Counted from the first letter of the stretch, positions 1,533-24,364 are shown. The stretch is 64,000 bases of DNA from Ramlibacter sp. (GCF_035554825.1 NZ_DATMHS010000103.1:8377-72376); one strand, 5' to 3'. The notes: generated from the letters alone by a model not told the origin. A program made the numbers and translations.

Positions 1533-1538
1533 GGGCGG

Positions 1539-4723: not shown

Positions 4724-4777
4724 GCCCGGCTACCATTCACGGCCCGGACTTACCCGCACCGATCACAGGGAGACACC

Positions 4778-5230: not shown

Positions 5231-5251
5231 CGCCGCTGGCGGCCGGCGCGC

Positions 5252-8104: not shown

Positions 8105-9839
8105 GGGGGAAGTAGTCCTGCACGCAGCGCACCGGATTGGGCGCCGCCTGGCCGAGGCCGCAGATCGACGCGTCGGCCATCACCTGGTTCAGGTCCGTCA
8201 GCGTACCGTTGTCCCACTGCGGCGCTTCCATCAGCAGCGCCGCCTTCGACGTGCCGACCCGGCACGGGGTGCATTGGCCGCAGCTCTCGTGCGCGAAGAA
8301 CCGCATCATGTTGAGCGCGGCGTCGCGCGCGCGGTCGTGCTGGCCCAGCACGATGATGGCGGCCGAGCCGATGAAGCAGCCGTGCGGCTGCAGCGTGTCG
8401 AAGTCGAGCGGCAGGTCGGCCAGCCGGGCCGGCAGGATGCCGCCCGACGCGCCGCCCGGCAGGTAGCCGTAGAGCTGGTGGCCGGGCGCCATGCCGCCGC
8501 AGTATTCGTCGATCAGCTGGCGCAGCGTGATCCCGGCCGGGGCGAGCTTGACGCCCGGCTGGGCGACGCGGCCGCTGACGCTGAAGGAGCGCAGGCCCTG
8601 CCGCCCGTTGCGTCCGGCGCCGGCGAACCACTCGGGGCCCCGCTCCAGGATGTCGCGCACCCAGAACAGCGTCTCGAAGTTGTGTTCCAGCGTCGGCCGG
8701 CCGAACAGGCCGACCTGGGCGACGTACGGCGGGCGCAGCCGCGGCTCGCCGCGCTTGCCTTCGATGCTCTCGATCATCGCGGACTCCTCGCCGCAGATGT
8801 AGGCGCCGGCGCCGCGCCGCAGCTCGATGCGCGGCAGCGGACACGGCGGGTCGGCCTGCAGCGCCGCGAGTTCCGCCTCGAGCAGCGCCCGGCAGGCGTG
8901 GTACTCGTCGCGCAGGTAGATGAACACCGCCTCGGTGCCGGCCACCTGCGCCGCGATCAGCATTCCCTCCAGGAACCGGTGCGGGTCGCGCTCCAGGTAG
9001 AAGCGGTCCTTGAAGGTGCCGGGCTCGCCTTCGTCGATGTTGACGGCCAGGTAGCGCGGCGCGGGCTGCTCGCCCACGATCCGCCACTTGCGCCCGGCCG
9101 GGAAGCCGGCGCCGCCCAGGCCCCGCAGCCCGGAGGCTTCCATCGCGCGCAGCACCCGGTCGGCATCGTCCTCGCAGTTGACGACGGCGGCGGCCGTCGC
9201 ATAGCCGCCCTGCTCGCGGTACGCCCGGTAGCCGACGAAGCCGGACGGCATCGCCGCGCGACCGCGTTCGCCAGCCGGCCGCTGCTGCTCGCCGGCGACC
9301 GCCTGCGCCAGCAGCTCGGGGGTCGCCTGGCCCACGGCGACCTGCCCGACGAGCGCCGCCGGCGCCTGCTCGCAGCGGCCGATGCACGGCGCGGCGATCA
9401 CGCGCACCGCACGGCCGACGATCTGCGGCAGCCGCTCCAGCAGCGCGCGCGCGCCGGCCAGCTCGCAGGACAGGCCGTCGCACACCCGCACCGTGAGCTC
9501 GGCGCCGGGTCGGTCGTCCGGCAACAGGTCGAAGTGGTGGTAGAAGCTCGCCACCTCCATCACCTCGGCCATCGGAATGTTCATCTCGCGCGCCAGCGCC
9601 ACCAGGTGCCGCTCGTGCAGCCCGTGCCAGCGGTCGTTGACGCGGTGGAGGTACTCGATCAGCAGGTCGCGCCGGTGGCCGCCGGCGGGCACCGGGCCGA
9701 TGAGGCTTCGCACTTCGGCCAGCGCGCCTTCCTGCGGCTGGCGGCCCTTGAGCTTGGCGGCGCGGCGCAGGCTGCGGCGCAACGCCTCGGCCGTCCCGAG
9801 CACGGTGGCGGGAGCATTCCCCATGAGTTCTCGATCCAA
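8094..9839 (-). CDS. Formate dehydrogenase beta subunit, fused NuoE-like (2Fe-2S) and NuoF-like (FMN/NAD/4Fe-4S) domains
   Basis: 581-aa ORF. NuoE-like part: VRVCDGLSCELAG..APCIGRCEQAP. NuoF-like part: GLRGLGGAGFPAGRKW, NIDEGEPGTFKDR, ESCGQCTPCR. The start could instead be the ATG at 9824. Confidence 0.9.
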   Translation of the reverse strand: MDRELMGNAPATVLGTAEALRRSLRRAAKLKGRQPQEGALAEVRSLIGPVPAGGHRRDLLIEYLHRVNDRWHGLHERHLVALAREMNIPMAEVMEVASFYHHFDLLPDDRPGAELTVRVCDGLSCELAGARALLERLPQIVGRAVRVIAAPCIGRCEQAPAALVGQVAVGQATPELLAQAVAGEQQRPAGERGRAAMPSGFVGYRAYREQGGYATAAAVVNCEDDADRVLRAMEASGLRGLGGAGFPAGRKWRIVGEQPAPRYLAVNIDEGEPGTFKDRFYLERDPHRFLEGMLIAAQVAGTEAVFIYLRDEYHACRALLEAELAALQADPPCPLPRIELRRGAGAYICGEESAMIESIEGKRGEPRLRPPYVAQVGLFGRPTLEHNFETLFWVRDILERGPEWFAGAGRNGRQGLRSFSVSGRVAQPGVKLAPAGITLRQLIDEYCGGMAPGHQLYGYLPGGASGGILPARLADLPLDFDTLQPHGCFIGSAAIIVLGQHDRARDAALNMMRFFAHESCGQCTPCRVGTSKAALLMEAPQWDNGTLTDLNQVMADASICGLGQAAPNPVRCVQDYFPHEI

Positions 9840-9911: not shown

Positions 9912-11383
9912 CTACAGGTATCCGAGCATATTCCACCACACCGCGCCGACCGCGACCAGGATCGCCAGATTGACGACGCTCATGACGGCGCCGGCGGCCC
10001 ACCACTCGTTGAGCGTGGCATAGCCGGAACCGAAGATGATCGGCGCGGTGCCGGTGCCGTAATGGGTCAGCGACATCATCAGCGACGAGGCGAACGCCAG
10101 GACCAGCGCGAACAGCATCGGCGGCGCGCCGAGCGCCACGCCGGCGGCGAAGAACGCCCCGAACATCGCGGTGATGTGGGCGGTGGTGCTGGCGAAGAAA
10201 TAGTGCGCGTAGAAATAGATCAGCACCAGGATCGCCGTCGCGCTGATCCAGCCCAGCCCGAGCTGGCCGATGCCCTGCCGGATGGTGGTCGACACCCAGC
10301 CGACCAGGCCCAGCTTGCCCAGGAAGGTGGCCATCATCACCAGGGCGGCGAACCAGACCAGCGTGTCCCAGGCGCTTTTCGCCTTCAGGATGTCGTCCCA
10401 GTCGAGCACGCCGGTGACCAGCAGCAGCGACAGGCCGATGAAGGCGGCGGTGGTGGCGTTGATCTCGAAGGCGGGGCCCAACAGCAGCGCGGGCACCTCG
10501 CCCACAGCAGCAGCATCAGCCCCAGGACGCCCAGCGTGATGTATTCGGAAGCCTTCACGGGCCCCAGCCGGGCCAGTTCGTTCTGGGCCAGTTCCTTGGC
10601 GTTGGGCGTGTTCTTGATCTCGGGCGGGAACAGCAAGTACAGCACCAGCGGCATCACCAGCAGCATGCACAGGGCCGGCAGCAGCGCCGCCAGCGCCCAC
10701 TGGCCCCACGTGATCCTGATGGCGGAGTTGGTGGCCTTGGCGACCAGGTCGACGATCAGCGGGTTGGGCGCGGTGGCCGTGATGAACATGGCCGACGTGA
10801 TCGGGTTGGTGTTGTAGTTGACCAGCGCCAGGTAGCGCCCGATCTTGCGGGCGGTCCCGAGTTCGGCGCTGGAGCCGAAGGCGTCGGCCACCGAGCGCAT
10901 GATCGGGTGGATGATGGCCCCGCCGCGGGCCGTGTTGCTCGGCGTCACCGGCGCGATCGCCACTTCCGACAGCACCAGGCCGTAGGCCACGCCGATCGTC
11001 TTGCGTCCGAACAGCGAGATGAAGTAGTAGCCGATGCGGGTGCCCAGCCCGGTCTTGCTCAGGGCGGCCGAGATCATCACCGCGATGGCGATCAGCCAGA
11101 TCAGCGCGTTGGAAAAGCCGCTCAGCGCATCGGCGATCGCGCCCTCGGGATTGTGCGGGCGCGTGACGCCGGTGAGCGCCACCAGCGAGATCGCGACGAT
11201 CGACAGGGCGCCGATCGGCATGGCCTTGCCGATGATCGCGGCGATGGTGCCGATGAACAGGGCCAGCAGATGCCAGGCCTCGGGACTGACCTTGGCGGGC
11301 ACCGGGATGACGAACCAGAACAGGAGGGCGATGCCGATGGCGATCGCGCTGGGAAGGGGCTTGGGGAGAGACTGCTTGAGCAT
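9912..11383 (-). pseudogene. DASS-family (divalent anion:Na+ symporter / 2-oxoglutarate-malate translocator-like) anion permease, interrupted by a single-base frameshift
   Basis: The N-terminal 294 codons read well in ORF 10385..11383 up to ...YITLGVLGLMLLLW. The C-terminal part reads well in ORF 9912..10709 from GEVPALLLGPAFEINATTAAFIGLSLLLVTGVLDWDDI... to the stop. The two frames meet at the C-run 10501-10503; one extra C (G in the sense strand) would give LLLWGEVPALLL. Confidence 0.8.
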
Positions 11384-11627: not shown

Positions 11628-12719
11628 TCAGGTGCCCTTGGAGACCGTGATGGTGGGGAACTTGGAAGAGAAATCCTTGGCCTTGGCCGCGATCTTGATC
11701 GCCACCTGGCGTGCCACGGCCTTGTAGATCGCCGCCACCTCGCCGTCGGGCTCGGCCACCACGGTCGGCTTGCCGCTGTCGGCCTGCAGCCGGATCCTGA
11801 TGTCCAGCGGCAGCGCGCCCAGATAGTCCATGCCGTACTCGGCCGCCATCCGCTGGCCGCCGCCCTCGCCGAAGATGTGTTCGGCGTGGCCGCACTGGCT
11901 GCACACGTGCACCGCCATGTTCTCGACGATGCCCAGGATCGGCACGCCGACCTTCTCGAACATCTTGATGCCCTTCTTGGCGTCGAGCAGCGCGATGTCC
12001 TGCGGCGTCGTCACGATCACCGCGCCGGTCATCGGCACCCGCTGGGACAGCGTGAGCTGGATGTCGCCGGTGCCTGGCGGCATGTCGACGACGAGGTAAT
12101 CGAGGTCCTGCCAGTTGGTCTGGCGCAGCAGCTGCTCCAGGGCCTGGGTGGCCATCGGGCCGCGCCAGATCATCGCGTCGTCCGGGGCGACCAGAAAGCC
12201 GATCGACATCACCTGCACGCCGTAGTTCTCCAGCGGCTCCATGGTCTTGCCGTCGGCCGACTCCGGCCGCTGGTCGATCCCCATCATCATCGGCTGGCTG
12301 GGGCCGTAGATGTCGGCGTCCAGGATGCCCACGCGGGCGCCCTCGGCGGCCAGCGCCAGCGCCAGGTTCACCGCCATCGTGCTCTTGCCGACGCCGCCCT
12401 TGCCGGAGGCGACGGCGACGATGTTCTTGACGCCCGGCAGCAGTTGCACGCCGCGCTGGGCGGCGTGGGCCACGATCTTGCTGCCCAGGGTGGCCGAGAC
12501 GTTCCTGACGCCCGGCACGGCCTTGGCCGCATTCACCAGCGCCGTGCGCAGCGCCGGGATCTGGCTCTTGGCCGGATAGCCCAGCTCCACCTCGAACGAA
12601 ACGTCGCCCTCGTGCACCTGCAGGTTGCGCAGCGCCTTGGTGCTGACGAAATCCTTGCCGGTGTTGGGATCGATCACGGCCGAAAGGGCCTGGAGCAGCT
12701 GGTCTTGGGATGCGGACAT
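11628..12719 (-). CDS. apbC: Fe-S cluster carrier ATPase ApbC/Mrp
   Basis: Internal ATG 12717-12719 ([25 protein letters not shown]). P-loop [12 protein letters not shown]. CxxC motif (CSQCGH). Confidence 0.9.
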
Positions 12720-12857
12720 GGGTGGGGATTCCTCTGCGGCAAGTGTACCGACTCGATCCTGCTCCCCTCGCGATGTCCCCGCCGCGCGCAGGGCAGCCGC
12801 GGCCTGCGGCCGGCGCAAAGCGGTCGCCTAGAATTCCTGGTTCCCTGGAAGCCCACC

Positions 12858-14942
12858 ATGCCCGCACAGCGCAAGCTCTTCGTCACCACCGCCCTGCCGT
12901 ACGCCAACGGCAAGTTCCACATCGGCCACATCATGGAATACATCCAGGCCGACATCTGGGTGCGGCACCAGCGGATGCACGGGCACATGGTTCATTTCGT
13001 CGGCGCCGACGACGCCCATGGGGCGCCGATCATGATCGCCGCCGAAAAGGCCGGCAAGACACCGCAGGCCTTCGTCGCCGACATCGCCGCCGGCCGCCGC
13101 CAGTACCTGGACGGCTTCCACATCCAGTTCGACAACTGGCACTCCACCGACAGCGCCGAGAACACCGAGCTGGCGCAAGGCATCTACCGCACGCTGCGCG
13201 CCAACGGCCTGATCGCGACGCGCACCATCGAGCAGTTCTACGATCCGGTCAAGGGCATGTTCCTGCCGGACCGCTACATCAAGGGCGAGTGCCCCACCTG
13301 CCACGCGAAGGACCAGTACGGCGACTCGTGCGAGGTGTGCAGCAGCGTCTACGCGCCGACCGACCTGATCGAGCCCTACTCCACGCTGAGCGGCGCCCGG
13401 CCCGAGCTGCGCAGCTCCGAGCATTTCTTCTTCAAGCTCTCGGACCCGAAGGTGGTCGCCTTCCTCCAGGCCTGGACCCAGGACGGCAAGCTGCAGCCCG
13501 AAGTCGCCAAGAAGGCCAGCGAGTGGTTCGAGGCCGGCATGGCCGACTGGGACATCAGCCGCGACGCACCCTACTTCGGCATCGAGATCCCGGATGCGCC
13601 GGGCAAGTACTTCTACGTGTGGCTGGACGCGCCGATCGGCTACCTGGCCAGCCTGAAAAACCACTTCGACCAGGGCCAGGCCCAGAACCACTGGGACCCG
13701 GCCTCGCGCACCGACGCCTCGTTCGACGACTTCGTGGCCGACCCGGCGGTGGAGCAGGTGCACTTCATCGGCAAGGACATCGTGTACTTCCACACCCTGT
13801 TCTGGCCGGCGATGCTGCAGTTCTCGGGCCGCAAGACGCCCGACCAGATCAACGTGCACGGCTTCATCACCGTCAGTGGCGAGAAGATGAGCAAGAGCCG
13901 CGGCACCGGCATCGACCCGCTGAAGTACCTCTCGCTCGGCATGAACCCCGAGTGGCTGCGCTACTACATCGCCGCCAAGCTCAACAGCAAGGTCGAGGAC
14001 GTCGACTTCAACCCGGACGATTTCGTCGCCCGCGTCAACGCCGACCTGGTGGGCAAGTACGTCAACATCGCCAGCCGGGCGGCGAAGTTCGTGCCCGGCG
14101 GCAAGCTGGTCAAGAGCGATGTGGCCCGGCTCGCCCCGGCGCGCCGCGTCGAGGAGATCGGCAAGCTCTACGAAGCGCGCGAGTACGGCAAGGCGCTGCG
14201 CGAGATCATGGCCTTCGCCGACGAGATCAACCTGCGCTTCGACGGCGCCGCGCCCTGGAAGCTGGTGAAGGAAGGCCGCGGCGCCGAGGCGGCGCAGGTG
14301 TGCTCCGAATGCCTGGAGCTGTTCAAGGTGCTCACGGCCTGCCTCAAGCCCGTGCTGCCCGAACTCGCGCTGCACGCCGAAGCCTTCCTGCAGTGCCAGC
14401 CGCTGACCTGGGCCAACGCCGCCCTGCCCCTGGGCGAGGGCCACCAGATCGGCGAGTACAAGCACCTGATGCAGCGGGTCGACCCCAAGCAGATCGACGC
14501 CTTGTTCGAACCGCCCGCCGAAGCGGCCGCAGCGGCGCCGGAGGCGCCGGCCGCGCCCGCCACCGGCGGCCGCAGCGACCCGGGCGGCGAAGGGCTGGCC
14601 GCCACCATCAACATCGACGAGTTCGCCAAGGTGGACCTGCGGATCGCGAAGATCCTGCGCTGCGCACCGGTGGAGGGTTCGACCAAGTTGCTGCAGCTGG
14701 AGCTCGACATCGGCGAGACCTCGCCGCGCAACGTGTTCGCGGGAATCGCCTCGGCCTACGAGCCCCAGGAGCTGGTCGGCAAGTTCACGGTGATGGTCGC
14801 CAACCTGGCGCCGCGCAAGATGAAGTTCGGCATCAGCGAAGGGATGGTGCTGGCCGCCAGCCACGCCGACCAGAAAGCCAACCCCGGCATCTTCATCCTG
14901 CAGCCCTGGCCCGGCGCCAAGCCTGGCATGCGGGTGCGCTGA
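12858..14942 (+). CDS. metG: Methionine--tRNA ligase
   Basis: ATG 12858. Product begins [28 protein letters not shown] (HIGH motif). Also has KMSKSRG (KMSKS), a Zn knuckle [17 protein letters not shown], and a C-terminal tRNA-binding domain. Confidence 0.95.
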
Positions 14943-15160: not shown

Positions 15161-15391
15161 ATGTCCCGCAGTACCGCTTCTCCCCTTCGTTTCGTTCGTC
15201 GCTGCGTCGCGCTGGCCGCGATCGCCGCCGGCAGCGCGTTGCTTGGCGGCTGCGCGGTGGTCACCGTCGCCGGTGCGGCGGTCGGCGTGGCGGCGACCGG
15301 GGTGGGGCTGGCCGTGGATGCCGGCGTCGGCGCGGTGAAGCTCACCGGCAAGGCGGTGGGCGCGGTGCTGCCCTCGGGCGACGAGCAGTAA
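15161..15391 (+). CDS. Small Gly/Ala/Val-rich lipoprotein (hypothetical)
   Basis: 76-aa ORF with a signal peptide and lipobox (AAGSALLGGC). The mature part is glycine-zipper-like (VAGAAVGVAATGVGLAVDAGVGAV). Confidence 0.5.
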   Translation: MSRSTASPLRFVRRCVALAAIAAGSALLGGCAVVTVAGAAVGVAATGVGLAVDAGVGAVKLTGKAVGAVLPSGDEQ

Positions 15392-15394
15392 CTC

Positions 15395-15913
15395 CTACTT
15401 GCGCCGGCGCACGGCGGCGAGGATGCCGCGCATGATTTCCAGCGGTGGCGGCGGGCATCCCGGCACGGTGAAGTCGACCGGCAGCACCTTGGCGACGCCG
15501 CCGCGCGTCGCATAGCTCTCGCCGAAGATGCCGCCGCAGGCGCCGCAATCGCCGACGGCGACCACCAGGCGCGGCTCGGGCATCGCGTCGTAGGTGCGCA
15601 GCAGGGCCTCTTCCATGTTGCGCGTCACCGGCCCGGTCACCAGCAACAGGTCGGCGTGGCGCGGACTGGCCACGAATTTGATGCCCAGCCCTTCCAGGTT
15701 GTAGTAGGGGTTGTTCAGCGCGTGGATCTCCAGCTCGCAGCCGTTGCAGGACCCCGCATCGACCGCGCGGATGGCCAGCGCCTGGCCCAGGATGTCCAGC
15801 AGTTGCTGCTGGATGCCGGCGACGGCGGCCGCCGCATCGGCCTGCGCAGGGGCGAACGGCGGCGCCTCGGTCGGCATGCCGGCGCGCCCGATCTGGCGGA
15901 CGATCTTCCACAT
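15395..15913 (-). CDS. NuoB/HyfI/HycG-like small subunit of an Ehr-type (hydrogenase-4-like) complex
   Basis: 172 aa. Motifs: DAGSCNGCELE, SPRHADLLLVTGPVT, GDCGACGG, VPGCPP. The Cys set for the proximal 4Fe-4S cluster is retained. Confidence 0.9.
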   Translation of the reverse strand: MWKIVRQIGRAGMPTEAPPFAPAQADAAAAVAGIQQQLLDILGQALAIRAVDAGSCNGCELEIHALNNPYYNLEGLGIKFVASPRHADLLLVTGPVTRNMEEALLRTYDAMPEPRLVVAVGDCGACGGIFGESYATRGGVAKVLPVDFTVPGCPPPPLEIMRGILAAVRRRK

Positions 15914-17464
15914 CTAGAGGTCCACTCCCGAATAAACCAGGTTGAACGACTTGTTGATCAGCGGGAAGTCGGGAACGATGTTGCCGATCACCGCGTGTTC
16001 GAGCGCCGGCCAGTTCTGCCACGACGGATCGTGGCAGTGGCAGCGCCGGATGCTGCCGTCCGCGCCGAGCTCCAGCGCCACCAGCACTTCGCCCCGCCAG
16101 CCTTCCACCCAGCCGACGCCGACCCCGGCCTGCGCCGGCGCAGCGATCGCGGCGCGCACTTCGCCGGCGGGCATCCGGCCGCAGATCTCGCGGATCAGCC
16201 GCAGCGACTCGAAGGTCTCGAAGAAGCGCACCGCCACGCGCGCGCGCACGTCGCCGGTCTGCTCGCCGGCGGCCGCCACTTGCAGTTCCTGGTACGGCAC
16301 CCAGGGGTGCTCACAGCGCAGGTCGGTGGTGCGGCCACTGGCGCGGGCGGCCAGGCCGGTCAGGCCCAGCCGGGCGGCCAGCGCCGGCGTGACGACGCCG
16401 GTGGTGGTGAAGCGGTCCTGCAGCCCTGCATGGGATTCGTAGATGGCGGCCAGCGAGCGCACTTCGGCCTCGATCTGCGTGCATTGCCGCAGCAGGCGCT
16501 GGCGCATGGCGTCGTCGAGGGCGACCGCGACGCCGCCGGGCACCACGCAGTCCATCGTCAGCCGGTGGCCGAACGCCGCCTGCGACAGCCGCAGCCAGTC
16601 CTCGCGCAGGCGCGAGAACTGCGCCAGGCCGAAGGCGAGCGCCGCATCGTTGCCGAGCGCGCCGAGATCGCCCAGATGATTCGCCACCCGTTCGCGCTCG
16701 AGCAGCAAGGCGCGCAGCCACAGCGCCGCTGGCGGCACCTGCACGCCCAGTGCGCTCTCGAGCGCCATGCAGTAGGCCCAGGCGAAAGCGACCGTCGAGT
16801 CGCCCGACACGCGCCCGGCGAGCCGGTGCGCCTCCAGCGGCGCCATGCGCGTGAAGCGCTGCTCGACGCCCTTGTGGGTGTAGCCCAGGCGCTGCTCCAG
16901 CCGCAGCACCTTCTCGCCGACCACCGAGAACCGGAAGTGGCCCGGCTCGATGATGCCGGCATGCACCGGCCCGACGGCGATCTCGTGCACGCCGTCGCCT
17001 GCCACCCGCACGAAAGGATAGTCCTGCAACGGGGTCTGCGGCACGCCCGCCGGCGCGGCACCCCGGCGCAGCGGCCGGTAGCCGTCGGGCCAGCCCCCGT
17101 GCGCGAGCCAGGGCCGGCTGTCCTCGGCGCCTTCGGCCACCACGCCGACCATATCGGCGGCGGCGCGCTGCATGCGGGCGGCGAAGGGAAACAGCCGCGA
17201 CAGGTCGGGATAGGAGCTCTGGCCCGGTTCCAGCTGCAGGTCGAGCCAGTACAGGCCCTGCTGCACGGCATAGGCGGCGGACAGGGCCAGGCGCGGTTGC
17301 GCCCCCTCGCCCCGGTCGCCGGCCCACAGCGCGACCAGCCGGCCGCCGCCGGCCGCCACGGTGCGCGCGCCGGCCAGCCACTGCAGCGCGTCGACGCTGG
17401 CGCGCCATATCGGCAGCGGCCCGGGCAGCCGCTGGAGCGCGAGGTTGAGGCCGGACAGTGCCAT
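15914..17464 (-). CDS. Fused NuoC-NuoD / HyfG-HycE-like large subunit lacking the Ni-Fe cysteine ligands (Ehr-type)
   Basis: 516 aa. Has GPVHAGIIEPGHFRF and RLGYTHKGVEQ. The L1 position reads RVSGDSTVAF and the C-terminus reads NLVYSGVDL, with no Cys at either site. Confidence 0.9.
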   Translation of the reverse strand: MALSGLNLALQRLPGPLPIWRASVDALQWLAGARTVAAGGGRLVALWAGDRGEGAQPRLALSAAYAVQQGLYWLDLQLEPGQSSYPDLSRLFPFAARMQRAAADMVGVVAEGAEDSRPWLAHGGWPDGYRPLRRGAAPAGVPQTPLQDYPFVRVAGDGVHEIAVGPVHAGIIEPGHFRFSVVGEKVLRLEQRLGYTHKGVEQRFTRMAPLEAHRLAGRVSGDSTVAFAWAYCMALESALGVQVPPAALWLRALLLERERVANHLGDLGALGNDAALAFGLAQFSRLREDWLRLSQAAFGHRLTMDCVVPGGVAVALDDAMRQRLLRQCTQIEAEVRSLAAIYESHAGLQDRFTTTGVVTPALAARLGLTGLAARASGRTTDLRCEHPWVPYQELQVAAAGEQTGDVRARVAVRFFETFESLRLIREICGRMPAGEVRAAIAAPAQAGVGVGWVEGWRGEVLVALELGADGSIRRCHCHDPSWQNWPALEHAVIGNIVPDFPLINKSFNLVYSGVDL

Positions 17465-17468
17465 CGCT

Positions 17469-18935
17469 TCAGTTCCCCAGCATGCGCGCCGCCTGCCGGT
17501 ACCACATGTCCAGGTAGGGCGGGATGTACAGGCCCAGCATCAGGCCGAGGCCGAGGTGGACGAACACCGGGATCAGCGCCGGCGGATGCGGCAGCCGCCG
17601 CACCGTCGTGTCGCCGAACACCATCGGCTGGACCCGGCTGAACACGCTGGCGAACGCCACCCCCAGCGCGATCAGCAGGAACGGCGTGGCCCAGGACTGC
17701 TCGCGCATGGCGGTGGTCACGATCAGGAATTCGCTGGCGAACACGCCGAACGGCGGCATGCCCAGGATCGCCAGCGAGCCGAGCATCAGGCCCCAGCCCA
17801 CCCTCGGGCTGATCTTGATCAGGCCGCGGATCTCGTCCATCACCTGGGTGCCGGCCTTCTGCGCGGCATGGCCGACCGCGAAGAAGATGGCCGACTTCAC
17901 GAGCGAATGCACGGTCATGTGCAAGAGGCCGGCGAAGCTGGCGATCGGCCCGCCCATGCCGAAGGCGAACGTCATCAGCCCCATGTGCTCGATCGACGAA
18001 TAGGCGAACATGCGCTTGACGTCCTTCTGCCGGATCAGCAGGAAGGCCGACACCACGACCGAGAGCAGGCCGAACCCCATCATCAGGTTGCCGGCAAGAT
18101 GGCTGTGCAGCGCGCCGTCGGTGAGCACCTTGCCGCGCAGCGCCGCGTAGAGCGCCACGTTCAGCAGCAGGCCCGACAGCACGGCCGACACCGGCGTCGG
18201 GCCTTCGGCGTGCGCGTCGGGCAGCCAGTTGTGCAGCGGCACCAGGCCCACCTTGGTGCCGTAGCCGATGAAAAGGAACGCAAACGCCAGCGTCATGATG
18301 TTGGGATCGAGCCGGTCCTTCACCGCGTCCAGGTGGGTCCACAGCAGCGCGCCGCCCTCGGCGCCGAGCACCTTCTCCGCCGCCATGTACAGCAGCACCG
18401 TGCCGAACAGGGCCTGCGCGATGCCGACGCCGCACAGGATGAAGTACTTCCAGGCCGCTTCCAGGCTGGCGGCCGTGCGGTAGACGCTGACCAGCAGCAC
18501 GGTGGTGAGGGTCGCCGCTTCCATCGCCACCCACAGGATGCCCATGTTGTTGGTGGTCAGCGCCAGCAGCATGGTGAAGCTGAACAGCTGGTACATGCTG
18601 TGGTACAGGCGCAGCCGGCCGGGCGTCATCTTGCCGTGGTCGCGCTCCACCCGCATGTAGGGGCGCGAGAAGATCGCCGTGGTCAGCCCGACGAACGCCG
18701 TCAGCGTGACCAGGAACACGTTCAGCGGATCGATGAAGAATTCCTCGCCCAGGGCAAACAGCGGACCGTCGGAGATGACGCGGGCCGTCAGGCCGCAGGC
18801 GGCCAGGAACGTGCCCAGGCTGAAGGCGACGTTGATCTCGGGCGCCTCGTCCCAGTGGCCGCACAGGGCCAGCACCACCCCGCCGGCCAGCGGGATGGCG
18901 AGCACCAGGAACAGCACGTCGATCGCCATCGTCAC
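17469..18935 (-). CDS. HyfF / NuoM-N-like antiporter-type membrane subunit
   Basis: 488 aa, polytopic. Motifs: GTKVGLVPLHNWLPDAHAEGPTPVSAVLSG and FAYSSIEHMG. GTG start overlaps the upstream stop (GTGA). Confidence 0.9.
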   Translation of the reverse strand: MTMAIDVLFLVLAIPLAGGVVLALCGHWDEAPEINVAFSLGTFLAACGLTARVISDGPLFALGEEFFIDPLNVFLVTLTAFVGLTTAIFSRPYMRVERDHGKMTPGRLRLYHSMYQLFSFTMLLALTTNNMGILWVAMEAATLTTVLLVSVYRTAASLEAAWKYFILCGVGIAQALFGTVLLYMAAEKVLGAEGGALLWTHLDAVKDRLDPNIMTLAFAFLFIGYGTKVGLVPLHNWLPDAHAEGPTPVSAVLSGLLLNVALYAALRGKVLTDGALHSHLAGNLMMGFGLLSVVVSAFLLIRQKDVKRMFAYSSIEHMGLMTFAFGMGGPIASFAGLLHMTVHSLVKSAIFFAVGHAAQKAGTQVMDEIRGLIKISPRVGWGLMLGSLAILGMPPFGVFASEFLIVTTAMREQSWATPFLLIALGVAFASVFSRVQPMVFGDTTVRRLPHPPALIPVFVHLGLGLMLGLYIPPYLDMWYRQAARMLGN

Positions 18936-19591
18936 TGGTCCTTCAGTTGTTCGAGGTGCCGGATGTCCAGGCTGTCGAACTGCTCGCGGATCTGGAACAT
19001 GAACACGCCCAGGATCAGCACGCCGATCAGCACGTCCAGGGCGATGCCCAGTTCCACCACCATCGGCATGCCGTAGGTGGCGGAGGTGGCGGCGAAGAAC
19101 AGGCCGTTCTCCATCGCCAGGAAGCCGATCACCTGCGGCACGGCCTTGGCGCGCGTGATCATCATCAGGAAGGACAGCAGCACGCAGGCCAGCGCGATGC
19201 CCAGCGTGCCGCGCGCCAGCGCGGTGGCCAGCTGCGCGATCGGCGTGGCGAGGTTGAAGGCGAAGATCACCACCAGGATGCCGATCAGCATGGTGGTCGG
19301 GATGTTGATCAGCGTCTCGACGTCCCAGCGGATCTTCAGGCGGTCGATGATCCGGTGCAGCAGCACCGGGATCAGCACCACCTTCAGCACGAAGGTGAGC
19401 GCCGCCGACAGGTACAGGTGCGGCTGCCCGGTCACGTAGCCCACCACCACCGTGGAGACCACCAGCGCCAGGCCCTGCAACGTGAACAGGTTGATCAGCG
19501 ACAGGATGCGGCGCTGCGAAATCATCGCGAACGCCAGCATCAGCAGCAGCGCGCCGATCAGGTTGATCGACTGGGCCAGCAGCTCCCTCAT
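18932..19591 (-). CDS. HyfE-like small membrane subunit
   Basis: Internal ATG 19589-19591 (MRELLAQSINLIGALLLML...). 219 aa, multiple TM helices, FLAMENGLFFAA motif. Overlaps both neighbours by 4 nt. Confidence 0.85.
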   Translation of the reverse strand: MRELLAQSINLIGALLLMLAFAMISQRRILSLINLFTLQGLALVVSTVVVGYVTGQPHLYLSAALTFVLKVVLIPVLLHRIIDRLKIRWDVETLINIPTTMLIGILVVIFAFNLATPIAQLATALARGTLGIALACVLLSFLMMITRAKAVPQVIGFLAMENGLFFAATSATYGMPMVVELGIALDVLIGVLILGVFMFQIREQFDSLDIRHLEQLKDQ

Positions 19592-20550
19592 GCCACCGCC
19601 TTTCCGGACGCCAGCAGCAGGTGCACCAGCATGCCGATCACCGCCAGCAGGAACGCCGCCGCCAGGAACTCCGGCACGCGGAAGATCCGCATCTTGGCCG
19701 CCAGCGTCTCCAGCACCGCCAGGCCGATGCCGCCGATGGCCAGTTTCAGCACCAGCACCGGCAACGCCAGCAGCAGCGCGAGCGGCGCCTGCGCGTCGGC
19801 GATGCCCCAGGGGAAGAACAGCGCCAGCCCGATGCAGGAGTAGGCGAACAGCTTCAGGCTCGCCGCCCACTCCAGCAGCGCCAGGTGCCGGCCCGAGTAT
19901 TCGAGGATCAGCGCCTCGTGGATCATCGTCAGCTCCAGGTGCGTCGCCGGGTTGTCCACCGGCACCCGGGCGTTCTCGGCCAGCGAAACCATCGTGAACG
20001 CCACCCCGGCGAACGCCAGCGCGGGGTGGATCGCCAGCTCCCGATGGGCCAGCGTTTCGACCACCGTGGCAAGCGAGGTGGAGCCAGAGATCAGGGAGGC
20101 GGAAAACAGCACCATCAGCAGCGCCGGTTCGGCCAGGAAGCCGATCAGCATTTCGCGGCGGGCGCCGAGCGTGCCGAACGAGGTGCCGATGTCCATCGCC
20201 GCCAGCGAGATGAACACCCGCGCCAGCGCGAACAGGCCGACCAGCGCGATCGCGTCGGCCGCCGGGGCCAGCGGCAGGTCGGTGGACATGGTCGGCACGA
20301 TGGAACTGGCCAGCGCCATGCAGCCGAACACGATGTAGGGGACGGCCCGAAACAGCGGCGACGCGTGCTCGGCCACCACCGAGTCCTTGTGGAACAGCTT
20401 GTGCAGCAGCTTGTACGGCTGCCACAGGCTGGGGGCCGACTTGTTCTGCAGCCACGCCCGCCACTGGTTCACCCAGCCGGTCAGCAGCGGGGCCAGCGCC
20501 AGCGCCACGAGGATCTCCAGCGCCTGGGCGGCGAAGCCGAGCGGGCTCAT
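19588..20550 (-). CDS. HyfC/HycD / NuoH-like membrane subunit
   Basis: Internal ATG 20548-20550 (MSPLGFAAQALEILVALALAPLLTGWVNQWRAWLQNK). 320 aa. Has VPVDNPATHLELTMIHEALILEYSG, typical of HycD/NuoH-like proteins. Confidence 0.88.
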   Translation of the reverse strand: MSPLGFAAQALEILVALALAPLLTGWVNQWRAWLQNKSAPSLWQPYKLLHKLFHKDSVVAEHASPLFRAVPYIVFGCMALASSIVPTMSTDLPLAPAADAIALVGLFALARVFISLAAMDIGTSFGTLGARREMLIGFLAEPALLMVLFSASLISGSTSLATVVETLAHRELAIHPALAFAGVAFTMVSLAENARVPVDNPATHLELTMIHEALILEYSGRHLALLEWAASLKLFAYSCIGLALFFPWGIADAQAPLALLLALPVLVLKLAIGGIGLAVLETLAAKMRIFRVPEFLAAAFLLAVIGMLVHLLLASGKAVA

Positions 20551-22580
20551 CGGCGCACCACCATGAGGACGGCGATCAAGGTCGCGAAGCTGTACAGCAG
20601 GTACACCGAAATGCGCCCCTGCTGCAGCAGCCCGACCAGGCGCGCGATGCGTGACGCCAGCGCCACCAGCGGCAGGTAGATCCAGCGCCAGAAATGGTCT
20701 TCGACCACCACCCGGTAGCGCGGCTCGGCATCGAACGGCGTCGGCAGCTCGCGGCGCATCACGAAGAAGGGCTCGAAGATCTGCCGGATCGGCTGGCCGA
20801 AGCCTTCGGCCGTGTCCTGCATGCGGGCGTTCTGCCAGGGGAAGCCGCAGTCCCAGGGCGCGGCGCGGCGCAGCCGGCCGTGATAGAAGACCCGCACCAG
20901 CAGGTAGGCCAGCCCGCAGCTGGCCGCGACCCCGAACAGGAAGATCACCGGGCCGTAGCTGGCGCGCTCGACGCTGATCGGCGCGAGCAGCCAGCCGCCG
21001 GCCGCCACCGTGCGGCCGAGGCCGGCGCCCAGGAGCTGCTGCGTCACCGGATCGATGAACTGGATGAACTGCACCGGCGCCAGGCCCAGCCCGACGCAGC
21101 CGAGCACCAGCCACAACATGCCCACGCGTTCCCAGGCGCCGGCGTCATGGGCCTGGGCCAGCTTTTCCTCGCGCGGCTGGCCCAGGAAGATCACGCCGAA
21201 GAACTTCACCATGGTGTAGCCGGCCAGCGCCGCCACCAGCGCGATCAGCGCGGCGACCACGGGAATGAGCATGTTCAGCAGCGAATCGGGCAGCCCCGGC
21301 GTGAACAGGAAGCTTTGCAGCAGCAGCCACTCCGAGACGAAGCCGCCCAGCGGCGGCAGGCCGGCGCTGGTCAGCACGCCGACCAGGGTGACCCAGGCCA
21401 CCCACGGCATGTAGCGGATCAGGCCGCCCAGCTTGCCCAGGCTGCGCTCGGCGGTGGCGTGCAGCACGCAGCCGGTGCTCAGGAACAGCAGGCTCTTGAA
21501 GACGGCGTGGCTGGCGACGTGGTAGAGGGCCGCCGTGAGCGCCAGCGCCGCCAGCGCCTTCATGCCGTAGCCGGCGAAGACGACCGTCAGTCCGATGCTG
21601 GCGAACAGCAGGCCGATGTTCTCGATCGACGAGTAGGCCAGCAGGCGCTTCATGTCGACCTGCACCGCCGCGAACACGACGCCGAACAGCGCCGTCGCCA
21701 GCCCCAATGCCAGCAGCAGGCCGCCCCACCACCACAGCTGCGTGTGCAGCAGGTCGAACGACACGCGCAGCAGCCCGTACACGGCGGTCTTGAGCATCAC
21801 CGCGCTCATCAGCGCGGACACCGGCGATGGCGCCGCCGGGTGCGCCTCCGGCAGCCACACGTGCAGCGGCAGCAGGCCGGCCTTGGCGCCGAACCCCAGC
21901 AGCGCCAGCAGGAAGGCGGTGGAGGCCCAGAACGGCGAGAGCTGCTGCGCCCGCATGTTGGCGAAGGTGTAGTCGCCGGTGTTGGCCTGCAGCACGCCGA
22001 AGCACAGCAGGATGGCGACGGCGCCGATGTGCGCCATGGTGAGGTACAGGTAGCCGGCACGGCGCACCTCGTCGATGCGGTGGTTGGCCGTGACCAGGAA
22101 GTAGGACGACAGCGCCATCGTCTCCCACATCACCATGAAGGCATAGGCGTCCGCGGCGAGCACGACCAGCGTCATGCTGGCCAGGAACACGTGGTATTCG
22201 AGGCACAGCAGCCCCGGTGGCGTGCCTTCGGCCTTGCGGAAATAGCCGGCGGCGAAGACCGACACCCCGGCCCCCACGGCGCCGATCACCATCAGGAAGA
22301 ATGCGGCCAGGCTGTCCAGGCGCAGGTGGAACGGCAGGTTCGGCAGCCCGACCGGCAGCACCACCGACTGCGCGCCGCCGAAGACCGAGGGCAAGGCGGC
22401 GCCGAACAGCAGCAGCCCGACGGCCCCGCCGGCGGGAAAGAGCACGCGCGAGACGAAGGTGAACCGCCGCAGCGCCACGATGCCGGCCACCCCGATCAGC
22501 AGCCATGCGGCAACGGCCAGCAGCATCCAGTCGAGCCGTTGCCAGCCGCCGGCATGCATCAGTACGGTGATGTCCGTCAT
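20547..22580 (-). CDS. HyfB/HycC / NuoL-like antiporter-type membrane subunit
   Basis: 677 aa. Motifs: GAKAGLLPLHVWLPEAHPAAPSPVSALMS and LAYSSIENIG. The C-terminal extension is as in HyfB. Confidence 0.9.
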   Translation of the reverse strand: MTDITVLMHAGGWQRLDWMLLAVAAWLLIGVAGIVALRRFTFVSRVLFPAGGAVGLLLFGAALPSVFGGAQSVVLPVGLPNLPFHLRLDSLAAFFLMVIGAVGAGVSVFAAGYFRKAEGTPPGLLCLEYHVFLASMTLVVLAADAYAFMVMWETMALSSYFLVTANHRIDEVRRAGYLYLTMAHIGAVAILLCFGVLQANTGDYTFANMRAQQLSPFWASTAFLLALLGFGAKAGLLPLHVWLPEAHPAAPSPVSALMSAVMLKTAVYGLLRVSFDLLHTQLWWWGGLLLALGLATALFGVVFAAVQVDMKRLLAYSSIENIGLLFASIGLTVVFAGYGMKALAALALTAALYHVASHAVFKSLLFLSTGCVLHATAERSLGKLGGLIRYMPWVAWVTLVGVLTSAGLPPLGGFVSEWLLLQSFLFTPGLPDSLLNMLIPVVAALIALVAALAGYTMVKFFGVIFLGQPREEKLAQAHDAGAWERVGMLWLVLGCVGLGLAPVQFIQFIDPVTQQLLGAGLGRTVAAGGWLLAPISVERASYGPVIFLFGVAASCGLAYLLVRVFYHGRLRRAAPWDCGFPWQNARMQDTAEGFGQPIRQIFEPFFVMRRELPTPFDAEPRYRVVVEDHFWRWIYLPLVALASRIARLVGLLQQGRISVYLLYSFATLIAVLMVVRR

Positions 22581-22648
22581 TCCTCTGCCCGCGCCGACCG
22601 GCGCAGTGGCCGCCGATCTCGTGTCGGGTCACCTGCTGAGGGGGCGCG

Positions 22649-22671
22649 GATGGGCATATGGTAAACCCATC
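22649..22671. promoter_or_regulatory. Inverted repeat GATGGG-N11-CCCATC with an AT-rich core, in the promoter region of the Ehr-type operon
   Basis: The site reads gatgggcatatggtaaacccatc. It is the only AT-rich patch in the 162-nt region upstream of the HyfB-like start (22580). Confidence 0.3.
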
Positions 22672-22742
22672 GGCGGCGCGGGGCAGCCAAAGGCCGGGCT
22701 GCTGGCGCATGTTTGCGCGCCGGGCGCCACCTGCCGGCGGCT

Positions 22743-23246
22743 TCAGCGGCCCCGGTGCTCCAGCGCCTCGGGATCGGGCGCGCTGCTGGTGCGCAGCACC
22801 CGGTAGTCCGGGTTGAACCAGACCGTGAACACCATCGAGGTGTTGGGCGGCTCCAGGTAGCGCCAGTCCCAGGCGATTTCGTTCTTCAGGGCGTACGGGG
22901 TCTTCTTCATCGGCTTGCCGAGCAGGCGGCGCACCTCCTCCATGGCCATGCCGGGCTGCACCTGGGCGAAGGTGCGCGGGTTCAGCACCTGCCGCAGCGA
23001 GGTCATCTTCCCGTCCGGGCCGATGCCGATCATGAAGTTCTGGTGGCCGGACGGCTGCCGGTTGTATTCGAAGATGCGCTCGCCGCCGGCGCCGTCCCAG
23101 ATGTTCTCGGGCGCGCCGAAGCGCTGGCGCACGTCCGCCTCGGTCGACACGCCCTCCTCCAGCTCGCGCACGCGCTGGGGATCGCACGCCGCCAGGACGG
23201 TCAACGCCAGCATCAGGGCGGCGCGGCCCAGCTTCTTGATCAGCAT
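22743..23246 (-). CDS. SmpA/OmlA (BamE-like) domain lipoprotein
   Basis: Internal ATG 23244-23246. Product begins MLIKKLGRAALMLALTVLAAC (lipobox), then EEGVSTEADVRQRFGAP...MEEVRRLLGKP, two BamE-like repeats. Confidence 0.7.
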   Translation of the reverse strand: MLIKKLGRAALMLALTVLAACDPQRVRELEEGVSTEADVRQRFGAPENIWDGAGGERIFEYNRQPSGHQNFMIGIGPDGKMTSLRQVLNPRTFAQVQPGMAMEEVRRLLGKPMKKTPYALKNEIAWDWRYLEPPNTSMVFTVWFNPDYRVLRTSSAPDPEALEHRGR

Positions 23247-23291
23247 CAACGGCACTCGGAGGTAAAATTCGGCTCGAAAGGCTTCCAGTCT

Positions 23292-23513
23292 ATGTCCATC
23301 CTGCTTCGCATCTTCCGCCGCCCCGACTACAACTCGGACACGACCGAATTCATCGAGCAGCTCAAGGCCAGGAAGCCGGACATCGAGGCCCAGCAGCGCG
23401 TCGGCCGTTCGCTGCTGTGGGACAAGCACATCGACCGCGACGCCACCGAGGAGTGGCAGGCGGCCCGCGTGCGCCAGAAATCCTACGTCTACTTCTCCCA
23501 ATCGGGCCGATGA
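23292..23513 (+). CDS. DUF3460-like small protein
   Basis: ATG 23292. 73-aa product MSILLRIFRRPDYNSDTTEFIEQLKARKPDIEAQQRVGRSLLWDK.... Its stop overlaps the scpA start (ATGA). Confidence 0.6.
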   Translation: MSILLRIFRRPDYNSDTTEFIEQLKARKPDIEAQQRVGRSLLWDKHIDRDATEEWQAARVRQKSYVYFSQSGR

Positions 23514-24364
23514 CGGCACCGGCGCCCGCGACGCTGCCTGAGCCGCCGGCGCCCGAGCTGGGCGGCATGCCCGACGTCGTCGACCAGGTCGCGCTGGCGC
23601 GGCTGTATGGCGAACCGCTGTTCGCCATGCCGACCGACCTCTACATTCCGCCGGACGCGCTGGAGGTCTTCCTCGAAGCCTTCGAGGGGCCGCTGGACCT
23701 GCTGCTGTACCTGATCCGCAAGCAGAACTTCAACATCCTCGACATCCCGATGGCCGGCGTCACCCGCCAGTACCTGGCCTACGTCGAGGAGATTCGCTCG
23801 CGCAATCTGGAGCTGGCCGCCGAATACCTGCTGATGGCGGCGATGCTGATCGAGATCAAGTCGCGCATGCTGCTGCCGCCGCGCAAGAGCGCGGAGGGCC
23901 AGGAGCCCGAGGACCCGCGCGCCGAGCTGGTGCGCCGGCTGCTGGAATACGAGCAGATGAAGCTCGCGGCGGCGCGCCTGAACGAGGCGCCGCAGCTGGG
24001 CCGCGACGTGTGGCGCGGGCAGGTCTACATCGAGCAGTCGCTGCAGCCGCGCTTTCCCGACGTCAACGTGGCCGACCTGCAGGAAGCCTGGCGCGACATC
24101 GTCAGGCGCGCCAAGCTGGTGCAGCACCACAAGATCACGCGCGAGGAGCTGTCCGTGCGCGAGCACATGAGCGTGGTGCTGCGGGCGCTGCAGGGCCGCA
24201 AGTTCGTCGAGTTCGAGCAGCTGTTCGATCCGACGCGCGGCATGCCGGTGCTGATCGTCACCTTCATCGCCGTGCTGGAGCTGGCGAAGGAAGCGCTGAT
24301 CGACCTGACGCAGGCCGAGGCGTTCGCGCCGATTTACGTGCGGCTGGCCTACCAGCCGGCCTGA
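23510..24364 (+). CDS. scpA: Segregation and condensation protein A
   Basis: ATG 23510. Motifs: FEGPLDLLLYLIRKQNFNILDIPMAGVTRQYL and ELAAEYLLMAAMLIEIKSRMLLP. Confidence 0.88.
   Translation: MTAPAPATLPEPPAPELGGMPDVVDQVALARLYGEPLFAMPTDLYIPPDALEVFLEAFEGPLDLLLYLIRKQNFNILDIPMAGVTRQYLAYVEEIRSRNLELAAEYLLMAAMLIEIKSRMLLPPRKSAEGQEPEDPRAELVRRLLEYEQMKLAAARLNEAPQLGRDVWRGQVYIEQSLQPRFPDVNVADLQEAWRDIVRRAKLVQHHKITREELSVREHMSVVLRALQGRKFVEFEQLFDPTRGMPVLIVTFIAVLELAKEALIDLTQAEAFAPIYVRLAYQPA

Follow-up and report, generated by a model that had tools for sequence, protein, structure and literature searches.

A six-gene Ehr-type membrane complex, predicted to have lost its Ni-Fe site, in a Ramlibacter-like genome

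A 64,000-nucleotide stretch of DNA from Ramlibacter sp. (GCF_035554825.1, NZ_DATMHS010000103.1:8377-72376; the whole stretch is called the window here) carries on its minus strand six contiguous genes, ehrABCDLS, for a membrane complex of the Ehr class. The name stands for "Ech-hydrogenase-related" or "energy-converting hydrogenase-related" (PMC6688271, PMC8691401). The G+C content of the window is ~70% and the closest relatives are proteins of Ramlibacter, with identities reaching 77%; the host is a Ramlibacter-like betaproteobacterium. All six open reading frames (ORFs) are intact and lie exactly where a sequence-only reading of this DNA had placed them, from 22580 down to 15395:

20547..22580, minus strand: ehrA, HyfB/HycC/NuoL-like antiporter-like subunit, 677 residues (NCBIfam hydrogenase 4 subunit B, 928 bits)
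19588..20550, minus strand: ehrB, HyfC/HycD/NuoH-like subunit, 320 residues (Pfam NADHdh, E = 3.9e-31)
18932..19591, minus strand: ehrC, HyfE-like small membrane subunit, 219 residues (NCBIfam, E = 3.9e-26)
17469..18935, minus strand: ehrD, HyfF-like antiporter-like subunit, 488 residues (NCBIfam hydrogenase 4 subunit F, 909 bits)
15914..17464, minus strand: ehrL, fused NuoC-NuoD/HyfG-like large subunit without Ni-Fe ligands, 516 residues (Pfam Complex1_30kDa and Complex1_49kDa)
15395..15913, minus strand: ehrS, HyfI/HycG/NuoB-like small subunit, 172 residues (Pfam Oxidored_q6, E = 6.7e-32)

The Pfam match of EhrA is Proton_antipo_M, and the NCBIfam match of EhrC, "hydrogenase 4 membrane subunit", falls below the cut-off of that model. 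In BLASTP comparisons with the products of the Escherichia coli hyf operon, the reference for all Hyf comparisons (L088), the six subunits gave one-to-one best matches at 23-45% identity: EhrA with HyfB (35%), EhrB with HyfC (34%), EhrC with HyfE (23%, E = 2e-11), EhrD with HyfF (45%), EhrL with HyfG (31%), and EhrS with HyfI (42%). The Hyf-like identities first proposed for the six subunits were thus upheld by Pfam, NCBIfam, and BLASTP. The complex is built like a group 4 membrane hydrogenase of the Hyf type but almost certainly is not a hydrogenase.

The genes are tightly packed. The ehrA/ehrB junction is an ATGA overlap at 20547-20550, in which the ehrB start codon overlaps the ehrA stop, and ehrB/ehrC has the same overlap at 19588-19591. 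The ehrC/ehrD junction is a GTGA overlap (18932-18935), with an in-frame ATG two codons downstream as an alternative ehrD start; ehrD and ehrL meet as TGA, 4 nucleotides, and ATG, and the ATG of ehrS directly follows the TAG of ehrL. These overlaps and gaps had been described correctly; the translational coupling that was claimed along with them is suggested by the packing.

Three segments of the large subunit, EhrL, bear on its former active site:

16928..16972, minus strand: loop motif GPVHAGIIEPGHFRF, EhrL residues 165-179
16784..16813, minus strand: former L1 Ni-Fe motif RVSGDSTVAF, residues 218-227, opposite RVCGICGFAH of HycE and HyfG
15917..15943, minus strand: former L2 Ni-Fe motif and C-terminus NLVYSGVDL, residues 508-516, opposite DPCYSCTD(R)

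The best solved relative of EhrL is E. coli HycE (7z0s_E; phmmer, E = 3.5e-61), followed by MbhL and the NuoD/Nqo4 chains of complex I. The motifs were aligned with phmmer against solved structures (HycE 7z0s_E) and separately with MAFFT against HyfG, and the two alignments agree with each other and with the earlier alignment by eye, in which both Ni-Fe motifs had been judged degenerate. At L1, RVCGICGFAH is replaced by RVSGDSTVAF, and at L2, DPCYSCTD is replaced by NLVYSGVD; all four cysteines and the L1 histidine are lost, and the four Cys positions are occupied by Ser, Ser, Val (Ser in relatives), and Gly. In addition, the maturation-type C-terminal extension is absent: HyfG runs 32 residues past CYSCTDR, and EhrL stops at the aligned SGVDL. 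None of the window genes that were scanned is a hyp, hycI, or other hyc maturation gene or codes for HyfA or HycB, in accordance with the sequence-only reading; hyp genes could also serve other hydrogenases. With this set of replacements, EhrL is predicted to be unable to bind Ni-Fe.

The replacement residues are themselves conserved: Asp222 occurs in every one of 120 close homologues and Gly221 in 119 of them, with Ser220 near-invariant. The consensus of the family at the L2 position is NLSYSGHDL. Val510 of the window protein is Ser in more than 90% of homologues, the S510V change occurring only here among the ~80-120 homologues compared, and Val514 is rare, the usual residue in its clade being His. 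Because of Val510 and Val514, the C-terminus of this EhrL looks NuoD-like; the resemblance to NuoD that had been pointed out therefore holds mainly for the window protein and not as a trait of the family.

The loop motif GPVHAGIIEPGHFRF is near-invariant in Ehr proteins and true group 4 hydrogenases alike, and Glu173, which is retained within it, corresponds to the Glu of DEPGH in HycE and HyfG. In the ungapped phmmer alignment to Nqo4 of Thermus thermophilus (2fug_4), Gly221 falls at the position of Tyr87 and Ile172 at that of His38, and equivalents of these quinone-contact residues of complex I were not found in EhrL. Marreiros et al. reportedly treated the lack of the quinone-contact Tyr and His, in 2013, as a class-defining feature of Ehr. 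By these alignments, EhrL fits neither a hydrogenase site nor a complex I quinone site.

Overall, 172 of the 516 EhrL positions are near-invariant in the 120 close homologues, among them Glu173, Arg218, Gly221, Asp222, Arg457, Asp479, and nearly all of Pro498-Asp515. The regions homologous to the active site (residues 151-300 and 451-516) are 81-87% conserved, in comparison with ~50% for the NuoC-like domain, and variation is concentrated in that domain and in residues 301-450. The best-conserved part of EhrL is the remodelled pocket, made up of S-G-D-S, N-L-S/V-Y-S-G, Glu173, Arg457, and Asp479. A C-H-C-H motif at residues 475-478 was considered as a new metal site of the family and rejected, since it occurs only in the betaproteobacterial clade and other Ehr clades have R-x-K-V-x-D-P-S.

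An AlphaFold model of EhrL, built from a 51-sequence alignment, reached a predicted local distance difference test score (pLDDT) of 82 and a predicted template modelling score (pTM) of 0.86, with low confidence only at residues 146-197 and 493-516. These two segments are conserved, and in homologues they form the interface with the small and NuoH-like subunits. A Foldseek search with the model returned HycE first (template modelling score 0.82, 28% identity), the next matches being the fused NuoCD chains of complex I from Aquifex and E. coli; no Ehr structure was found among Protein Data Bank (PDB) entries up to April 2026, for which HycE, at 28% identity, was the best structural match.

In contrast to the large subunit, the small subunit has kept its metal-site ligands. 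EhrS matches the solved chains HycG (E = 9e-37) and MbhJ (E = 8e-36) with the cluster cysteines in register: Cys56, Cys59, Cys123, and Cys153 align to the HycG/MbhJ ligands and are invariant in 70 of 70 homologues, so that EhrS retains the four ligands of one proximal [4Fe-4S] cluster. The cysteine set that had been listed for this subunit stands for these four, but not for the extra Cys126 in DCGACGG, which is not conserved. The cluster motif is CNGC, that is, the CxxC of hydrogenase small subunits, whereas the complex I chain has tandem Cys.

The other part of EhrS that calls for explanation is its start:

15848..15913, minus strand: EhrS residues 1-22, HyfH/HycF/NuoI-type N-terminal remnant, with the 8-Cys core absent

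This segment, MWKIVRQIGRAGMPTEAPPFAP, is identical to residues 1-22 of E. coli HyfH at 11 of 22 positions (BLASTP, E = 6e-4), and none of 100,000 shuffles reached the observed score. It is unlike the N-termini of HyfI or of Methanoperedens EhrS, and a HyfH-like N-terminus also heads fused Fer4-NuoB subunits and a separate Methanoperedens ferredoxin. The EhrS of six-gene operons is best read as a HyfH-HyfI fusion from which the 8-Cys core would have been deleted, leaving the proximal cluster. A second match, of EhrS 19-37 to HyfH 123-141, both starting with PFAP, hints at a deletion between two PFAP-coding repeats; at E = 0.03 it is not significant. ORF, Pfam, and NCBIfam analyses detected no gene for a NuoI-type 2x[4Fe-4S] subunit (HyfH, HycF, EchF, MbhN) in the six-gene operon, where only the 22-residue remnant on EhrS represents it. 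Hence the absence of a ferredoxin subunit gene, as first reported, is correct, with the amendment that the N-terminus of EhrS is a relic of the HyfH/NuoI type.

In the membrane arm, the best solved relative of EhrA is HycC (7z0s_C, E = 9e-66) and EhrB matches HycD (7z0s_D, E = 3e-42); by homology, EhrB is the membrane anchor of the peripheral arm. EhrA keeps Glu153 in transmembrane helix 5 (TM5), Lys233 in TM7, Lys264 in TM8, and Glu417 in TM12; EhrD keeps Glu139, Lys228, and Glu402; and the two share the TM5 Glu, TM7 Lys, TM11 His/His/Lys, and TM12 Glu. The conserved charged transmembrane residues are retained in the NuoH-like subunit as well as in both antiporter-like subunits. EhrD has Asn259 at the position of the central TM8 Lys, but its interpretation as a dead proton channel was discarded, as E. 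coli HyfF has the same Asn, which looks like a trait of the HyfF lineage. No solved relative of EhrC was found by sequence. Its candidacy as a NuoK homologue was not upheld: hhalign against an approximate E. coli NuoK query paired Glu161 with NuoK Glu36 at a non-significant E = 0.14, and the only other NuoK-like signal of this type of subunit is a weak Pfam Oxidored_q2 match in one homologue.

The same features extend to a large family. With EhrL as the query, 6441 matches at E <= 0.001 were obtained among 50%-identity cluster representatives; the best 150 were used, ~100 of them (of at least 440 residues) were aligned, and 86 were classifiable as full-length proteins. Within this subset of the best 150, ~70 of the 86 are Cys-less, with R-[VI]-S-G-D-[STNE] and N-L-S-Y-[SA]-G-x-D-L, and 15 of the aligned proteins have four Cys (RxCGxC, ELCY[SA]C), these only at 32-37% identity; a few have a single Cys. 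The nearest 50%-cluster representatives are overwhelmingly Cys-less and carry the same signature, as judged by alignment comparison. A search with a profile built on 50 distant Cys-less representatives brought in a further 120 proteins, from Methanoperedens/ANME-2, Nitrospira, Acidobacteriota, and Fraserbacteria, and S-G-D and S-Y-[SA]-G are found in all 120. Across the family, Ser or Thr systematically stands in for three of the four Cys and Gly for the remaining one, with an invariant Asp inserted between the first two of these positions and a D-P-S motif in place of R-S-[AP]-S. The combination S-G-D-[STN] and L-S-Y-[SA]-G is proposed here as a new, family-wide replacement signature.

The ferredoxin module is found in different states among these relatives. 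The Nitrospira locus (L081) has the same six genes and no input module, and is flanked by genes for PAS-histidine kinases and NtrC-type sigma-54 regulators. In Methanoperedens (L083, L085), an extra gene for a 112-residue 2x[4Fe-4S] protein lies between L and S, together with a Usp gene. Acidobacteriota and Fraserbacteria have a 270-residue S subunit: in the former (L087), a ferredoxin domain is fused to the NuoB-like domain and a hybrid PAS kinase gene adjoins the locus, and in the latter, Pfam supports the NuoB-like domain only and the protein starts with the same HyfH-like N-terminus. These regulator and sensor genes near distant ehr loci suggest conditional, sensor-controlled expression. 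Five relatives (Methylibium, Piscinibacter, and Rhodoferax) have, adjacent to the six-gene operon, another Ehr-like complex that is paralogous to it; the L subunit of this second complex is ~35% identical and ends in SFDLSYCGNDL, and its S subunit carries a fused 2x[4Fe-4S] ferredoxin domain. Its sites in the five loci are:

L020: 924-2959
L079: 1740-3756
L059: 13864-16047
L066: 17836-20032
L074: 1990-4013

The locus almost certainly encodes an Ehr complex and not a hydrogenase, and it is a new orthologue, in a Ramlibacter-like genome, of a published and functionally unsolved class. Ehr was first named in Geobacter and is described as lying near group 4f hydrogenases, without CxxC motifs and with function unknown (PMC10284858, PMC10432482, PMC7304191); a further study defines it likewise as related to group 4, with no CxxC and no known function (PMC6349859). 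The assignment, already proposed from the sequence, agrees with this definition (PMC10284858, PMC6349859, PMC10432482) and with accounts of the same cluster in Cupriavidus (PMC2864759), Acidithiobacillus ferrooxidans (PMC7735108), and Methylacidiphilum (PMC6688271). In Cupriavidus metallidurans and Cupriavidus necator, the same hyfBCEFGI cluster was judged unlikely to be a lithotrophic hydrogenase (PMC2864759), and the Nitrospira cluster was first interpreted as a group 4 hydrogenase (PMC5596200). In the literature on the class, and likewise for the C. necator locus tags, no functional study, biochemistry, genetics, structure, or fitness data were found, in line with the initial statement that no function has been established for Ehr.

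Compared with the Ehr complexes of Geobacter sulfurreducens (GSU0739-0745), A. ferrooxidans, Nitrospira, and Methylacidiphilum, the window locus has the same six subunit types in the same order, a large subunit without Ni-Fe cysteines, and a [4Fe-4S] site in the NuoB-like subunit; nothing essential differs. The minor differences are S510V, H514V, and the C-H-C-H of the betaproteobacterial clade. Clusters named hyfBCEFGI in C. necator (H16_A2196-2201) and C. metallidurans (Rmet_4666-4671) share the gene order, and three Cupriavidus loci of our set (L030, L036, L043) are direct orthologues, with 67% identity in EhrL and 77-85% in the membrane subunits. The Methanoperedens seven-gene form and the fused forms of Acidobacteriota and Fraserbacteria have the same L signatures, membrane subunits, and order, but they keep the 2x[4Fe-4S] module, as a separate gene or fused, that the window and Nitrospira forms lack.

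With respect to E. coli hydrogenase 4, also called formate hydrogenlyase-2 (HyfABCDEFGHIJ), and formate hydrogenlyase-1 (HycBCDEFG, PDB 7Z0S), the large subunit is a NuoC-NuoD fusion in all, the small subunits share the CxxC-type cluster motif, and HyfF and EhrD share the TM8 Asn; however, Ehr is without the Ni-Fe ligands, the maturation tail, HyfA, HyfD, and HyfJ, and HyfH is reduced to the 22 residues on EhrS. No gene for formate dehydrogenase H or an FhlA/HyfR-type regulator was found in the ehr operon. Complex I has a homologous core module, EhrL ends where NuoD ends, with no tail, and the window protein has Val at the same two C-terminal positions as NuoD; nevertheless, NuoA, E, F, G, I, and J equivalents are lacking, the cluster motif is CxxC and not tandem CC, and of the complex I set only NuoB-, NuoCD-, NuoH-, and NuoL/M/N-like subunits and one possibly NuoK-like subunit are present. 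The Pyrococcus MBS/Mbx and MBH complexes belong to the same superfamily (MbhL, MbhJ, MbhM, MbhH, MbsL, MbsJ, and MbsH are significant matches) but are much more distant, with E-values for L of 1e-16 to 1e-31. Both contain a NuoI-like subunit and a much larger number of Mrp-type subunits. Finally, EhrA matches MrpA and MrpD of the Mrp antiporter (7qru, 6z16), to which the operon adds NuoH-, NuoCD-, and NuoB-like subunits; equivalents of MrpE, F, and G were not detected in the operon by ORF and Pfam/NCBIfam analysis.

The conservation of the whole operon was followed in a set of 80 related genome loci, in which gene order was scored wherever the contig was long enough. They come from Ramlibacter, Rhodoferax, Polaromonas, Accumulibacter, Cupriavidus, Ralstonia, Aromatoleum, Methylibium, and others, in the Burkholderiales, the Rhodocyclales, and beyond, and the order A-B-C-D-L-S is identical in all of them. 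Identity to the window subunits is 70-95% for the membrane subunits, 61-77% for L, and ~60-80% for S. Purifying selection acts on all six genes, least strongly on L: ratios of non-synonymous to synonymous substitution rates (dN/dS; Nei-Gojobori, against three Ramlibacter loci) are 0.09-0.29 for A to D, 0.18-0.26 for S, and 0.27-0.41 for L. More than 8000 homologues were scored.

As for function, it is about an even bet that the Ehr complex is a redox-coupled ion translocator, and any specific redox partner proposed for it is improbable at best. Under this hypothesis, the complex would still work as a redox-coupled translocator of H+ or Na+: electron transfer via the single cluster would change the charge or protonation of a polar Ser/Asp pocket at the interface of the L, S, and NuoH-like subunits, and this change would drive, or be driven by, the passage of ions through EhrB, EhrC, EhrD, and EhrA. 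As the input module of the ferredoxin type appears to have been cut out of EhrS, the redox partner would have to dock directly on EhrS or EhrL; a soluble ferredoxin or flavodoxin could fill this place, as could another enzyme by way of a ferredoxin-like domain. The second partner would most plausibly be the quinone pool of the membrane or a small molecule that binds in the pocket. Either direction would be possible, including the ion-gradient-driven reduction of a low-potential carrier. The 2x[4Fe-4S] modules retained in sister clades point to a redox function for the family and are the main argument for it.

Several results weigh against this reading. The canonical electron-input module has been lost in the clade of the window, which could equally mean that redox chemistry was abandoned and that the cluster is structural. 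L and S evolve faster than the membrane subunits, and the window EhrL carries S510V and H514V within the conserved pocket motif. The quinone-contact residues of complex I have no counterpart in the Nqo4 alignment, and the structural model is that of a single EhrL chain with low-confidence interface segments. In addition, among 585 flanking ORFs of the 80 loci no conserved partner gene was found next to the operon, and the papers found demonstrate neither a donor nor an acceptor nor an activity for an Ehr complex.

The strongest competitor, although rather unlikely, is a non-redox role, in which the complex would be an Mrp-like cation/proton exchanger or serve pH homeostasis, with the peripheral arm, Fe-S cluster included, as a structural cap or a regulatory redox or O2 sensor. 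Deletion of the 2x[4Fe-4S] module in the window form is the main argument for it, as EhrS is left with one isolated cluster; a Ni-Fe site and a recognisable quinone site are lacking too, the flanks hold no conserved redox partner gene, and the membrane subunits are the most constrained (80-95% identity, dN/dS 0.09-0.2). A role in pH homeostasis has also been suggested for Methylacidiphilum ehrABCDLS (PMC6688271). However, a cap or exchanger accounts poorly for four cluster ligands that are invariant in all 70 homologues, for a pocket beside the cluster that is the most conserved part of EhrL, and for the two further [4Fe-4S] clusters of sister clades, which would be pointless without electron transfer; nor are the MrpE, MrpF, and MrpG equivalents of such an exchanger present.

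The sequence-only reading had placed two different formate dehydrogenases to the left of ehr and had guessed at a formate link. The genes fdsB and fdsA do lie nearby, at 5252-9839 and 5.5-10 kb from ehrS, and FdsA has Fer2_4, Fer4 dicluster, and Nqo3-type ferredoxin domains. It is thus conceivable, but quite doubtful, that a formate-oxidising, complex-I-like assembly is formed, in which Ehr would be the membrane module, and FdsA (NuoG-like, with its dicluster ferredoxin) and FdsB (NuoF- and NuoE-like) would dock on EhrS/EhrL in place of the HyfH core and supply electrons from formate. A complex of formate dehydrogenase with Ehr is already a published proposal, for Margulisbacteria and Saganbacteria (PMC6349859), and every Ehr subunit detected in G. 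sulfurreducens was present at higher abundance with formate than in hydrogen-containing conditions (PMC7894505). The fds and ehr genes are, however, not one operon: four genes in mixed orientations (a frameshifted transporter gene, mrp, metG, and a small lipoprotein gene) intervene, and no electron acceptor was identified. The survey of orthologous neighbourhoods in the 80 loci likewise retained A-B-C-D-L-S but not the proximity of fds, with close homologues of both FdsA and FdsB within 10 kb of ehr in a single locus, that of the closest relative, Ramlibacter lithotrophicus (L001), which has the same arrangement, and only weak Fds matches (25-43% identity) in four others. Moreover, FdsABG-type enzymes have been isolated as soluble NAD+-reducing enzymes, which also counts against such an assembly.

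No better supported, in our estimate, is a more specific form of the redox hypothesis, according to which the six-gene Ehr would be a single-cluster energy converter, derived from a HyfH-HyfI fusion by precise loss of the ferredoxin core, with the exposed proximal cluster serviced in trans by a detachable partner and the Ser/Asp-lined former Ni-Fe pocket acting as a new catalytic or charge-gating site. The partner here would possibly be the NuoG/NuoI-like FdsA of the nearby formate dehydrogenase. If true, this would make Ehr a modular, complex-I-like pump with an exchangeable input enzyme.

A decaying, functionless remnant of hydrogenase 4 is highly improbable. The catalytic ligands, HyfA, D, H, J, and R, and the protease-cleaved tail are lost, and the C. 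metallidurans genome paper wrote of an "incomplete operon" (PMC2864759); yet there are six intact ORFs with coupled junctions and the same order in 80 loci, more than 8000 homologues, and protein detected in Geobacter (PMC7894505, PMC8691401). Decay, which had been named at the outset as one of the findings that would overturn the assignment, is rejected because the 172 EhrL positions are near-invariant, the EhrS cysteines invariant, and the genes under purifying selection, with dN/dS well below 1. Least credible of all is a true hydrogenase with non-canonical ligands, which the fold, the closest solved relative (HycE), and JGI records reading "Ni,Fe-hydrogenase III large subunit" might suggest, but with which the replacement of all four Cys, the missing C-terminal maturation peptide, and the A. 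ferrooxidans homologue, a non-hydrogenase by HydDB of whose cluster no subunit was detected in cells grown on H2 (PMC7735108), do not agree.

Ehr complexes are very widespread, occurring in Burkholderiales, Nitrospira, Methanoperedens, Acidobacteriota, and candidate phyla, and their routine mis-annotation as "hydrogenase 4" or "NADH-quinone oxidoreductase subunit C" leads to over-prediction of H2 metabolism; the signature S-G-D-[STN] plus L-S-Y-[SA]-G is usable to flag these non-hydrogenases. More generally, the function of Ehr is an unsolved problem in tracing how complex I evolved from hydrogenases, to which the window locus gives no answer. What this locus adds is the replacement signature, the constraint pattern, in which the strongest constraint in the large subunit falls on the former active site and not on the remainder, and the deleted-ferredoxin origin of EhrS, and little else. 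An input ferredoxin module that is present, fused, or deleted according to clade provides natural variants for experiments, and C. necator, which has close orthologues, is genetically tractable.

The ehr operon stands alone in its neighbourhood, which is made up of the following features:

22743-23519: BamE-domain lipoprotein gene, upstream of ehrA and followed by scpA
22581..22742, minus strand: intergenic region upstream of ehrA, presumed promoter region
15163-15387: small lipoprotein gene, convergent with ehr, downstream
12858-14942: metG, facing ehr, downstream, followed by the divergent mrp/apbC

No regulatory element was identified at 22581..22742, which shows no sigma-70 consensus, and no terminator signal rose above shuffle expectation; similarly, 50 aligned ehr upstream regions contain no conserved sigma-54 or FNR-type box, and there is no Rfam match anywhere in the window. 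When the 585 flanking ORFs were clustered, the recurring genes were all housekeeping genes: metG (19 loci), scpA (16), nadB (11), and mrp (9).

On the minus strand, positions 915-9839 hold a long formate-dehydrogenase-related run, with FdsB bearing a fused NuoE-like N-terminus, FdsA, and, further left, a DUF3305/DUF3306/poly-ferredoxin/TorD-like set that includes a TorD-like chaperone and a 740-residue protein rich in 4Fe-4S motifs. The ORFs that were scanned yielded no second molybdopterin catalytic subunit, and the run may form a single extended cluster instead of two different formate dehydrogenases; of the earlier claim, the nearby fds genes stand, and the link to ehr is not borne out by a conserved neighbourhood. 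Between fdsB and mrp, a DASS-family (Na_sulph_symp) transporter gene (9912-11383, minus strand) is split over two frames: one ORF (10385-11383) ends in nonsense-looking sequence and the other (9912-10709) holds the C-terminal part. The frameshift reflects either a pseudogene or an assembly error. The mrp gene itself (11628-12818) encodes an Mrp/ApbC/NUBPL-type Fe-S cluster carrier and lies near ehr in nine of the 80 loci. NUBPL homologues function in complex I assembly in mitochondria. The proximity of mrp to ehr is probably incidental, since the divergent metG-mrp pair is also present in related loci.

Elsewhere in the window, long ORFs without a Pfam match occupy 58000-62040, and ARAGORN called a 98-nucleotide tRNA-Ala at 60405-60502, a doubtful call given that Rfam recognised no tRNA or other RNA family. 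On the plus strand, three consecutive ORFs (48535-49839; 112, 123, and 179 residues) with coding-like composition and no Pfam match lie downstream of a pair of genes for a CHASE3 histidine kinase and a LuxR-type response regulator. Finally, a 497-residue multihaem c-type cytochrome, with cytochrome c7, MtrC/MtrF-domain, and paired-CXXCH matches, is encoded among housekeeping genes at 37241-38734 on the minus strand.

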